Below, in pieces: positions 41,164 through 43,068 of a stretch of DNA of 64,000 bases. The position numbers and the translations under genes were made by a program. The notes beneath the pieces are model-generated. The model was given only the letters and a program-made list of their open reading frames with translations. It had not been told where the DNA came from and ran no database searches. Every line of letters begins with the position of its first letter. Position 1 is the first letter of the stretch. The stretch is from a virus (Duplodnaviria; Caudoviricetes): the IMG/VR virus record IMGVR_UViG_3300028582_000252, positions 20,152-84,151 of that record; one strand, 5' to 3'.

Positions 41164-43068
41164 TTATTCCGAAGAATAATGTACGATGCCCGCAAGCACG
41201 AAACAAACATTCGGCAGAGCAACACCGTTGCCCCACATCTTGTATTCCGCCGAATCAGAATGCGGGTCTTTCAGCCACTTCACTATCTGCTTGTCCGTCT
41301 TTGGTTTTGATGCGCCGGTCACTATGACTCTGTGTGTTTCAAAGACCTCTCTCCAAAACCGGATATCCGCCGCAGTCACATCTTCCGTCCCGAGGTCACT
41401 GCACCACCAGTCCGGGAATCCCTGCAGCCTTGCGCACTCTGTCGGTGTAAGTCTTCTTACGATATATTCCGTCTCGTTCACAAGCGGCGGATCCTTATAA
41501 TCTGTCGCAACCAGTGTTCCCGCCACATCCTTTTCCGCTTTCATGAAAAAAGATGCCTTGTTAGCAGAATACCTCGGCTGAAACAATGTCTGGTCGTTAT
41601 TGCATGACAGCGTTGCCGACTTATCATTCTGGATAAGCGCGCCTTTGCCTCCGCCGTCCTTTCCTGAACGGATCTTCAGTGTCTTGGCTTCAGCGACTGC
41701 GCCCGGTCCTCTCGCAACTATGGTAGGTTCTTTTTCTTCTTCGACAGCAAAATCATACTTTGCATTCTGTCCCTGATTGAAAGCCGCACGGTCTATGCCG
41801 TATGCAACGGCATGCCTGTCAACAGTGTTCAGGGTATATCCGGTCTTTTCATTTACTCCGTCACCTTTTGGACCGTTCCCGTCTTTTCTTCCTATCATGG
41901 AACCCTGGACTGCGACTACTGCCATCCCGCCCTGACAGCATGCCGGATTGCCGCCTCCCGTGTCTATGGTGCGTGAAGTCTCCGCCTCATATATACCTGA
42001 CTTCGGATTATCAGATCTCATGGAATTGCTGCCGTCCGAGCAGATCCCGAACACCTGCATCGCCGCCGGCACAATTCCTGCCCTGAGGGTAGGCGATTTT
42101 TCTTTCTCATACCCGATGCTCCGGCTTTTTTCAGAATGCTCCGTGCAGAAACCTGCTGACTGCATAACGAGCGGCTGATTGTTCCCGCCTGTCCCGAATG
42201 TTGCAAGCACAGTCTGTGATTTACTTAGCGGTCCCGTATACCTTGAATCCTGCGAATGGTTCTCGAAAACCAGCGGCGGATGATTAGCCGCGGCGCGAAG
42301 CGTTGCAGTCATATCCTCCGTCACATCCATTCGCTCTCCGCCCTGATCGTTCAGGCACATGCAGCCTGTGATATCAGCGCTTTTTTCAATACTTCCGGCA
42401 GTTCTTTGCCACGCTTTGAAGCCCTCGTGAGAATACCCTGACACGCCTTCCGACTCAAATAGTATTTTTCCGGCACGCCTTCCATCAAGATCTGCGACAA
42501 GGTAGATACGTCTTCTTCTCTGGGGCACTCCCCAGTACTGAGCATCGAATGTTCGCCATGCGATGGAGAGATCATCTCCCATGATGCATCCTGACCTGTT
42601 CCATTTTTCAGGAGCAGGAACTGATATGTCTGCTGATTTGATCCGTGCGATCTCTTCAAGGACTGCCCTGAAATCTTTTCCTTTGTTCGAGGAGAACGCT
42701 CCTGTGACGTTTTCCCACACGATGTATTTCGGATATCTTCCATCGGTTTTCTCCCTCATTTCCCTGACTATCCGGACGGCTTCATAAAAAAGCACTGACT
42801 GTTTCCCCGTCAGTCCTTCTCTTTTGCCTGCCACGGACATGTCAGTGCATGGCGATCCGAATGTGATTATGTCAACCGGCTCTATTTCAGAGCCTTTTAT
42901 CTTCGATATGTCTCCCAGATGTTTCATGAACGGGATACGCTTTGTCGTTACCCTTATGGGAAACGGCTCTATCTCCGATGCCCATACCGGTGTTATCCCG
43001 CAGAGCATCCCGCCGAGAGGGAATCCCGCTGATCCGTCAAACAGACTTCCAAGCGTCATTTTGCACAT
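41164..43068 (-). CDS. Phage C5-cytosine DNA methyltransferase with long multi-module variable region
   Basis: LFDGSAG, GSPCTDMS, WENV, GVPQRRRR, RRLTPTECARLQGFPD, KMWGNGV. Confidence 0.93.
   Translation of the reverse strand: MCKMTLGSLFDGSAGFPLGGMLCGITPVWASEIEPFPIRVTTKRIPFMKHLGDISKIKGSEIEPVDIITFGSPCTDMSVAGKREGLTGKQSVLFYEAVRIVREMREKTDGRYPKYIVWENVTGAFSSNKGKDFRAVLEEIARIKSADISVPAPEKWNRSGCIMGDDLSIAWRTFDAQYWGVPQRRRRIYLVADLDGRRAGKILFESEGVSGYSHEGFKAWQRTAGSIEKSADITGCMCLNDQGGERMDVTEDMTATLRAAANHPPLVFENHSQDSRYTGPLSKSQTVLATFGTGGNNQPLVMQSAGFCTEHSEKSRSIGYEKEKSPTLRAGIVPAAMQVFGICSDGSNSMRSDNPKSGIYEAETSRTIDTGGGNPACCQGGMAVVAVQGSMIGRKDGNGPKGDGVNEKTGYTLNTVDRHAVAYGIDRAAFNQGQNAKYDFAVEEEKEPTIVARGPGAVAEAKTLKIRSGKDGGGKGALIQNDKSATLSCNNDQTLFQPRYSANKASFFMKAEKDVAGTLVATDYKDPPLVNETEYIVRRLTPTECARLQGFPDWWCSDLGTEDVTAADIRFWREVFETHRVIVTGASKPKTDKQIVKWLKDPHSDSAEYKMWGNGVALPNVCFVLAGIVHYSSE
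42351..42743 (-). CDS. Nested alternative-frame protein (M.EcoHK31I beta-polypeptide-like)
   Basis: 130-aa ORF inside the MTase gene, same strand; SD GAGGGAG 7 nt before ATG; STLSQIL...PEKYYLS.KACQGIL.RA..RGKELP..L..AL. Confidence 0.7.
   Translation of the reverse strand: MEDIRNTSCGKTSQERSPRTKEKISGQSLKRSHGSNQQTYQFLLLKNGTGQDASWEMISPSHGEHSMLSTGECPREEDVSTLSQILMEGVPEKYYLSRKACQGILTRASKRGKELPEVLKKALISQAACA

Follow-up and report, generated by a model that had tools for sequence, protein, structure and literature searches.

A conserved +1-frame gene nested in a provirus C5 cytosine methyltransferase gene and its proposed role as a structural subunit supplied in trans

Introduction

Does one open reading frame (ORF) account for the C5 cytosine methyltransferase of a Caudoviricetes provirus, or does the same DNA also encode a second protein on which the enzyme depends? 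This question was raised by a stretch of 64,000 nucleotides (nt) from IMG/VR record IMGVR_UViG_3300028582_000252 (positions 20,152 to 84,151; hereafter the window); the record, 84 kb long, is classified as a provirus. On the minus strand of the window, a methyltransferase ORF of 634 amino acids (aa) wholly contains a 130-aa ORF in another frame, which a first-pass annotation had proposed to be a small subunit resembling the beta chain of M.EcoHK31I. Our comparative data indicated that the nested ORF is very probably a real gene, conserved as a protein across phages of several host phyla. In the best-supported mechanism, to which we assign a probability of roughly 60%, its product would be a structural subunit that acts in trans and provides the segment found after motif VIII in one-chain enzymes. 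From these comparisons we infer translation of the nested ORF from the internal ATG, binding between the two chains, and a need for the small chain in methylation.

Results

A second frame within the methyltransferase gene

The two ORFs and the putative start signal of the smaller one are located as follows.

41164..43068, minus strand: main C5 methyltransferase ORF, 634 aa (ORF list, PF00145, TIGR00675, M.HhaI alignment)
42351..42743, minus strand: nested +1-frame ORF, 130 aa, stop codon at 42351-42353 (ORF list; open in 80/80 viral and 53/54 informative genome loci)
42751..42757, minus strand: Shine-Dalgarno (SD)-like GAGGGAG, 7 nt before the nested ATG (sequence; 65/70 unique homologues)

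The main ORF was assigned to the C5 cytosine methyltransferases by PF00145 in Pfam (E value 7.7e-41; 141 bits against a cut-off of 22) and by TIGR00675 in NCBIfam. Its alignment with M.HhaI covered motifs I-VI, VIII (residues 167-192) and IX (537-555), and the chain shows the C5 signatures, motifs I, IV (PC), VI (ENV, residues 119-121), VIII (QxRxR, here QRRRR at residues 183-187), IX and X. The Dcm-type structures 3lx6 and 3me5 also came up in that comparison. Motifs I-VIII are followed by a recognition array of about 290 aa and then by motifs IX-X.

The nested ORF starts with ATG, lies in the +1 frame relative to the main ORF (43068-42743 = 325), and overlaps main residues 109-239, including motifs VI and VIII, before ending at the start of the CLNDQGG... 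array. Its product includes the stretch STLSQILMEGVPEK. Motif IX (VRRLTPTECARLQGFPDWW, main residues 537-555) is exclusive to the main frame, and the nested protein has no motif IX. The GAGGGAG at 42757-42751 is separated by a 7-nt gap from the ATG at 42743-42741; it is made from main-frame E-M-R-E codons, the Arg being nearly always AGG in homologues, and the nested ATG arises from (N/D)-G main codons (xAT-Gxx). The first-pass annotation had described this same-strand ORF in another frame, its SD site, its overlap with motifs VI-VIII, its stop where the variable region begins and the confinement of motif IX to the main ORF; the ORF list and the sequence agreed with it on every coordinate and feature.

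The nested frame is kept open in homologues

Eighty homologous loci were fetched from IMG/VR with the main protein as the query (main-frame identity 50-64%), so the sample was unbiased as to open nested frames. In all 80 loci, the +1 frame was open for 132-157 codons over the same span, and the +2 frame for only 19-86 codons. Measured from the Q codon of motif VIII, the first ATG fell at -221 to -236 nt in 78/80 (the two exceptions at -188 and -287) and the nested stop at +160 to +187 nt. GAGG or GGAGG occurred at -16..-5 in 65/70 unique homologues. A further 56 loci came from species-representative genomes, mostly Clostridia, with one contig each labelled Enterococcus, Ruminobacter and Alistipes; two were cut by contig ends, and 53 of the 54 informative loci had the same nested arrangement. 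The open frame that the first-pass annotation had suggested looking for in homologues was found in both sets, and the SD site in the viral set. The one exception among the genomes (L158) has a frameshifted layout. At L158:2504-4264, on a contig of a metagenome-assembled genome, a 599-codon frame runs through motifs I-VI, the nested module, the array and motifs IX-X, motif VIII being skipped and lying in a separate short frame; either the gene is broken here or the contig is misassembled.

For comparison, E. coli Dcm and six further C5 methyltransferases taken from two Lachnospiraceae genomes were analyzed as controls, with stops counted from motif IV to 57 codons beyond motif VIII. Their +1 open runs were 13-58 codons with 5-13 stops, and three members of the nested-ORF family in the same two genomes had +1 runs of 134-148 codons. 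The short runs in these unrelated enzymes ruled out an open +1 frame as a general by-product of coding motifs IV-VIII. Diverged homologues thus retain the open alternative frame with its start and stop, and unrelated members of the family do not. When codons were redrawn according to the usage of each gene, leaving the protein unchanged, the probability of a +1 frame without stops was 5e-4 for the window gene and 0.049 (median) for 70 unique homologues. Elsewhere in the same genes, the +1 frame was stop-free in 9/956 control windows of 131 codons (mean, 4.4 stops). The first 65 nested codons, open in 70/70, had a chance of being stop-free of 0.125 (median) and of 0.0045 in the window gene, which favours independent initiation over a downstream frameshift, without proving it. 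The homologues are related, so these counts are not independent events; nucleotide identity across the overlap was only 0.75.

Both frames are under selection

Selection was measured on 70 unique sequences out of 81, and two parts of the overlap stood out.

42444..42548, minus strand: dual-coding core, main residues 174-208 (motif VIII and the next strand) and nested aa 66-100 (diversity 0.128/0.054/0.225; pairwise identity main 0.86, nested 0.75)
42354..42443, minus strand: part in which the nested frame is the better conserved, nested aa 101-130 and main residues 209-238 (identity nested 0.72 versus main 0.46; diversity 0.458/0.229/0.207)

At degenerate conserved residues, the share of the commonest codon was 0.51-0.64 along the well-covered gene and rose to 0.66-0.87 over main residues 101-240, reaching 0.83-0.87 over residues 181-240; the depression of synonymous variation that the first-pass annotation had suggested looking for was thereby detected. 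Diversity at the three main codon positions followed the usual pattern in the flanks (about 0.20/0.11/0.55 upstream and 0.23/0.15/0.57 downstream). In the dual-coding core it was low at all three positions, with both frames constrained. Over main residues 209-238, the free position was position 1 of the main frame, that is, position 3 of the nested frame, and the last 30 nested codons were correspondingly better conserved in the nested than in the main reading. Variation in step with the codons of the nested frame, three bases at a time, is not something that a DNA or RNA element would produce. The N-terminal half of the nested protein was less conserved than the main frame (0.43-0.53 versus 0.53-0.77), and motifs VI and VIII, read in the +1 frame, account for much of the conservation that it appears to have. 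Collectively, these codon-level comparisons showed a nested frame under purifying selection as a protein.

The nested protein carries a segment missing from the main chain

AlphaFold2 (46-row alignment) predicted nested residues 1-75 to be disordered, with a predicted local distance difference test (pLDDT) score under 50, and residues 81-128 to form three helices (pLDDT 88-94). The conserved part forms a compact module.

42363..42509, minus strand: folded conserved module, nested aa 79-127, VSTLSQIL..VPEKYYLS.KACQGIL.RA..RGKELP..L..AL (AlphaFold2, pLDDT 88-94 over aa 91-130; hhalign; shuffles)

Profile comparison with hhalign placed this module on one-chain Dcm-type enzymes. The nested alignment matched E. 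coli K-12 Dcm with nested 60-110 on Dcm 289-338, directly after motif VIII (E value 0.007), and an Anaerocolumna one-chain enzyme with nested 82-110 on 261-289, where motif VIII lies at 226 (E value 8e-4). Against a 25-row alignment of one-chain enzymes, nested 79-111 fell on 251-283 (80% probability, E value 1.4e-5). In the reverse direction, the 66-aa canonical segment alone matched the nested alignment at 95.5% (E value 1.6e-8) and, at 77%, relatives in which the module is fused to the array (beta-fused relatives, described below). Column shuffling gave 0/120 nested profiles reaching the real score of 44.2 (best 24.9, median 9.9), and the reversed profile scored 9.4. Three enzymes of other types that have no post-motif-VIII segment gave no match (E values 0.14-0.56); a fourth (L246) gave an E value of 0.0035. 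By profile, the nested module therefore matches the segment after motif VIII of one-chain Dcm-type enzymes, at that position.

The main chain gave a complementary result. The profile of one-chain enzymes aligned to it from motif I to motif VIII and then ended, and the 66-aa segment found no match in the main-chain alignment (best E value 0.03 over 11 columns). The nested and main-chain alignments had no similarity to each other in hhalign (E value 0.85). On these alignments, the main chain was shown to be without the post-motif-VIII segment of one-chain enzymes.

The nested protein had no Pfam or NCBIfam match at E values up to 1, and in the ESM Atlas its matches were confined to unnamed 'hypothetical protein' clusters. 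In PHROGs, there was a weak match to phrog_16143 'DNA methyltransferase' (E value 4.2e-5), probably a family built from frameshifted fragments.

Predicted docking of the module at motifs VIII and IX

A complex prediction paired the main chain (634 aa; 36 alignment rows) with nested residues 60-130 (45 rows) and included three controls; two main-chain elements framed the result.

42508..42522, minus strand: motif VIII QRRRR of the main chain, with surroundings that form the predicted contact surface for the nested module (M.HhaI alignment; complex prediction, interface residues 172-175, 177-182, 186)
41404..41460, minus strand: motif IX, main residues 537-555, predicted to pair with the nested KYYLS strand (M.HhaI alignment; lowest-error contacts main 536-544 with nested 85-96)

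The docking score was 0.71 (runs 0.69, 0.71 and 0.73) and that of the best control 0.01; this mark was reached by 58/80 solved complexes and 2/110 mismatched pairs. At least 43% of contacts were common to the runs, and the pLDDT of the partner was 60 or more. The predicted interface joined main residues 158-160, 172-182, 186, 204-207 and 534-548 with nested residues 68-96, 101 and 118-126. The lowest-error contacts were those of nested Y94-Y95-L96 with main I536-T541, the strand entering motif IX, and further predicted contacts linked nested 85-87 with main 541-548 and nested 82 and 85 with main P182 beside motif VIII. In the model, KYYLS (nested 93-97) pairs with main 536-541, and nested 81-87 rests on main 541-548 and 177-182. 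The co-folding of both chains proposed in the first-pass annotation thus gave a positive prediction. Its suggestion of a two-chain enzyme with a structural or regulatory cofactor gained model-level support for binding and a conserved frame, but its alternative role as a scaffold for the long array found no backing, as the predicted contacts lay on motifs VIII and IX and not on the array.

Relatives in deposited phages, including P1

A phmmer search of 1.84 billion representatives with the nested protein gave 3184 clusters at E values up to 0.001 and 936 at E values up to 1e-10, many of the matches being long proteins that start with the nested sequence. With tblastn against 50,697 deposited phage records, 101 records matched at E values up to 1e-8 (Vibrio 25, Escherichia 8, Ruminococcus 7, Streptococcus 7, Mycobacterium 4, Pectobacterium 4, and others). 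Eight phages were inspected: Ruminococcus NatCom_38182, Escherichia P1, Vibrio CP-T1 and 1.104.O, mycobacteriophage Omega, Caulobacter DMCA, Sinorhizobium NV1.1.1 and Streptococcus Javan105. In each of them the match lay in the +1 frame of an annotated methyltransferase coding sequence (CDS), belonged to an ATG-started ORF of 131-174 aa with the same terminal module, and was unannotated as a gene (8/8 for all three). In P1 (L255, OP279344.1), a 164-aa +1 ORF at 2219-2713 inside dmt (895-3936) ends in the module (…LLSQVLEQTSIPQRYFLSSKACAGILRRAEARGRKLP…). The P1 dmt papers that were searched do not mention a nested ORF, and a literature search, with most subscription journals outside its scope, found no paper on the nested gene. 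In Omega (L257), the nested +1 ORF encodes 157 aa and lies within gp127.

Two peculiarities of these phage genes were recorded. The P1 isolate's dmt encodes 1013 aa, with motif IV (GGTPC/QAFS) split by a long insertion that has Cys at its start and ...VVHN before Cys at its end, and which on these sequence marks looks like an intein. The Omega methyltransferase is annotated as two same-frame CDSs with a stop between them, gp127 (1296-2039) and gp128 (2046-2600).

Circularly permuted relatives and fusions

A circularly permuted subfamily was found at loci L082-L084, L089 and L161-L240 (e.g., L083:2706-4778), mostly on contigs of about 30-60 kb. Its chains start at motif III (MKHLGDI...) and end with motifs I-II (...LFDGIGGFPL...WASEIEEFP...), so that the new N-terminus lies between motifs II and III. 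Such a permutation is called 'Type B' in PMC5944983, which reports no case of it for the natural C5 methyltransferases that REBASE contained in 2018. Of 80 permuted loci, 55 had one chain with a nested ORF (135-256 open codons), 8 were beta-fused, 15 had other frame changes and 2 were incomplete. In the beta-fused form (8/78 complete loci), the nested frame continues into the array and motifs IX, X and I, giving an AquI-like alpha/beta pair with a long out-of-frame overlap. Here the module is covalently attached to the array and motifs IX-X, and a domain fusion of this sort is evidence for joint function with this portion of the enzyme. The nested-plus-array layout also occurred on many contigs in database proteins of 346-447 aa; the view that these are mere assembly errors was rejected in part, as they recur with different array lengths. 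AlphaFold2 on the beta-fused protein P0330 alone (25-row alignment) gave a mean pLDDT of 33.6, too low for an overlay on solved enzymes.

At the end of the nested ORF, a poly-G tract of G6 versus G7 or G8 separates the one-chain from the beta-fused form by one base (L161, L162 and L164 versus L168, near locus position 2894). This difference could be phase variation or a homopolymer read error; because the layout switches at this tract, a read error is conceivable for any single record. One further junction concerns the window gene.

42465..42469, minus strand: A5 run at which a 1-nt deletion joins the main to the nested frame (protein P0364)

P0364 (238 aa, 97% identical to the window's protein over the aligned part) has lost one A of this run, so that ...DGRRAGK is followed by YYLS... 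and the chain ends at the nested stop, joining motifs I-VIII to the nested C-terminus. A second A5 run in the overlap lies at 42604-42608. The layouts of the permuted subfamily suggest an origin in which the segment would have kept its ancestral frame, now the nested one, and a second shift would have brought the main frame back to the array.

Neighbouring genes

Upstream of the C5 gene lies a ParB_N/N6_N4_Mtase gene and, upstream of that, a small-terminase gene. The ParB_N/N6_N4 methyltransferase ORF (43037-44311) shares 32 nt (43037-43068) with the start of the C5 gene, an overlap which suggests that translation of both methyltransferases may be coupled. The same provirus holds, outside the window (G000:C1:9508-9900; locus L104, minus strand 1495-1893), a second methyltransferase of the nested-ORF family (559 aa), likewise behind a ParB/N6 methyltransferase gene; its nested +1 ORF encodes 132 aa and is 63% identical to that of the window.

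Discussion

The observations above can be assembled into a mechanism. Ribosomes initiating at 43068 would produce the 634-aa chain with motifs I-VIII, the long array and motifs IX-X, and ribosomes entering at the internal SD and ATG (42757-42741) would read the +1 frame into the 130-aa protein. The first ~75 nested residues would mostly be a disordered by-product of the main-frame motifs, and the last ~50 would form a compact helical module, the counterpart of the segment that runs from motif VIII to the small domain in one-chain Dcm-type enzymes. The main chain appears to have lost that segment, reading the same DNA in the other frame past motif VIII; as it is without the segment, the module would be supplied in trans, lodged with the loop of motif VIII on one side and the strand and helix of motif IX on the other, where it would complete the hinge and small domain. 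A broader reading, for which we see somewhat less than an even chance, is that a cross-phylum clade of phage and mobile-element C5 enzymes, including the P1 Dmt C5 domain, CP-T1 gp12 and Omega gp127/128, consists of obligate two-chain enzymes with an ancient small subunit that was dual-coded over motifs VI-VIII and stranded in the +1 frame by two frameshifts, some lineages switching between layouts at poly-G tracts.

Several points weigh against a subunit supplied in trans. Translation of the nested ORF is something we infer from sequence comparison. The runs holding the stretch were mostly DNA metagenomes, and in four RNA-labelled runs the contigs were short (e.g., 284 nt at 42283-42566 and 413 nt at 41649-42061), none spanning the gene and none showing its transcription, strand or ends. 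No evident SD precedes the P1 nested ATG. The N-terminal 75 residues are poorly conserved and predicted to be disordered. Main residues 190-213 (…AGKILFESEG…) are well conserved themselves and might do the structural job without a partner. Searches for known relatives of the module were negative: the nested alignment had 0 matches in a PDB sequence search at E values up to 10, the module alone had none in Foldseek against the PDB at E values up to 0.001, and a wide VIA-align search with the module alone returned generic helical hairpins, with no Z of at least 5. The docking pass may reflect likeness to solved one-chain enzymes, that is, the fit of the canonical segment and not binding by this copy; the model is thus consistent with a segment supplied in trans and is not an independent proof of binding. 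Frames are shifted in 23/78 complete loci of the permuted subfamily, so a separate small chain is not the sole viable layout. Lastly, 186 database proteins longer than 228 aa join the module to the N-terminal part of the methyltransferase or to the array and motifs IX-X, and these could be frameshift products and not errors.

Four other explanations were weighed. The nested protein may be real and yet non-structural, regulating or re-targeting the methyltransferase (its activity or timing) or host restriction, its likeness to the one-chain segment being mimicry or a relic. The evidence of coding selection fits any protein function, a long disordered N-terminal half is typical of regulatory or newly born overprinted proteins, and main residues 190-213 are conserved on their own account; however, the module matches a structural segment that the main chain lacks, its predicted docking falls exactly at motifs VIII and IX, and in some relatives it is covalently joined to the array and motifs IX-X, which makes such a role unlikely. 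We consider it improbable that the nested frame has no start of its own and is reached through a ribosomal or transcriptional shift, for instance at the A5 runs (42604-42608, 42465-42469), to yield a truncated isoform with motifs I-VIII and the module. The A5 runs are present in both frames, and many database proteins of 229-262 aa have exactly this composition, including P0364 with its junction at the A5 run. However, any mutation or read error that removes one nucleotide in the 390-nt overlap yields such fusions, so their presence in a database of 5.8 billion clusters is to be expected, and a fusion without the array and motifs IX-X could not methylate. The ATG position (78/80) and the SD-like site (65/70) are kept, and the first 65 nested codons are free of stops against chance (median P 0.125), a freedom that a shift farther downstream does not require.

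Still less probable is an untranslated frame kept open by a DNA- or RNA-level constraint (a conserved, recombination-prone cassette boundary, for example, or mRNA structure) or by recent common descent. The contigs from RNA libraries show no expression, and the related sequences make the open-frame counts non-independent. Recent descent fits poorly with an overlap identity of just 0.75 and with a frame open from Firmicutes phages to P1 and to Vibrio, Caulobacter, Sinorhizobium and Mycobacterium phages; the periodicity over residues 209-238 follows the nested frame, and the encoded module matches a known protein segment. Descent of the nested protein from a common ancestor with M.EcoHK31I beta has hardly any chance of being correct. 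The layout is the same, a small chain inside a methyltransferase gene in the other frame (PMC2836561), but beta holds motif IX and alpha is without it (PMC2836561, PMC3404938), whereas motif IX is on the main chain here. Motif IX is absent from the nested protein, which resembles neither the motif IX region nor any other part of the main chain (E value 0.85), so the resemblance to EcoHK31I beta proposed in the first-pass annotation is unsupported.

If the nested protein does act as a subunit supplied in trans, methylome and anti-restriction studies would be crediting one chain with an activity that needs two. Annotation pipelines drop the small gene, and recoding of the methyltransferase gene (codon optimisation) would silently destroy it, which could explain inactive constructs. 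The locus also offers a clean, testable case of a long same-strand overlapping gene of bacteria and phages, in which both frames are clearly under purifying selection. It has a plausible origin for the overlap, in which one segment keeps the ancestral frame while the main frame has moved.

Comparison with known systems

The alpha and beta chains of M.EcoHK31I were reportedly described by Lee, Kam and Shaw in 1995. As in that enzyme, a small chain is coded here wholly inside the gene of the large chain and in another frame; M.EcoHK31I needs its small second polypeptide, and a like need is proposed here. Unlike M.EcoHK31I, with which the comparison is by description only, all ten motifs are on the main chain and the small chain would supply the post-motif-VIII segment. 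M.EcoHK31I is part of a restriction-modification system; the present enzyme belongs to a prophage, with no nuclease seen beside the gene. The M.EcoHK31I beta gene (E. coli HK31, YGGCCR) is described as lying inside the alpha gene in the other frame, with motif IX on beta (PMC2836561, PMC3404938).

Beta-fused relatives of the window gene (L086, L161 and others) come much nearer to the layout of M.AquI, the alpha and beta chains of which were reportedly the work of Karreman and de Waard in 1990 and of Pinarbasi et al. in 2002. In contrast to M.AquI, the main ORF of the window holds motifs I-X in one frame, and only a module of about 50 aa is separate. M.AquI is split in the variable region, with motifs I-VIII on the large chain and the distal variable region and motifs IX-X on the small one (PMC3404938). 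Active enzyme also forms again from the separate pieces when M.SssI and other C5 methyltransferases are cut in the proximal variable region (PMC3404938); unlike such artificial two-piece splits, the present arrangement is natural and three-way, with a small middle piece on its own chain.

One-chain Dcm-type enzymes (E. coli K-12 Dcm, Anaerocolumna P0386 and relatives) hold the matching segment, ...L..IL...V.EKY.(I/L)(S/T)..LW...L.R..., in-chain at about 25-35 residues past motif VIII. Unlike in the window family, these single chains include the segment themselves, with a short recognition domain after it, and their +1 frame is closed. The methyltransferases of Bacillus phages SPR and phi3T are multispecific orphan C5 enzymes with long recognition arrays between motifs VIII and IX, and the window enzyme is likewise phage-borne with a long array in that place; we know of no nested gene described for them. 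Multispecific Bacillus phage methyltransferases are also mentioned in PMC12707154.

We therefore file the system as a natural multi-chain C5 methyltransferase with overlapping genes, yet as neither an M.EcoHK31I nor an M.AquI case. The papers cited here give only two natural two-chain C5 methyltransferases, M.AquI and M.EcoHK31I (PMC2836561, PMC3404938). If the proposed mechanism is true, the window enzyme would represent a third kind, differing from both in the piece that is separate, in dual coding over catalytic motifs and in its commonness (3184 clusters; 101 phage records, P1 among them).

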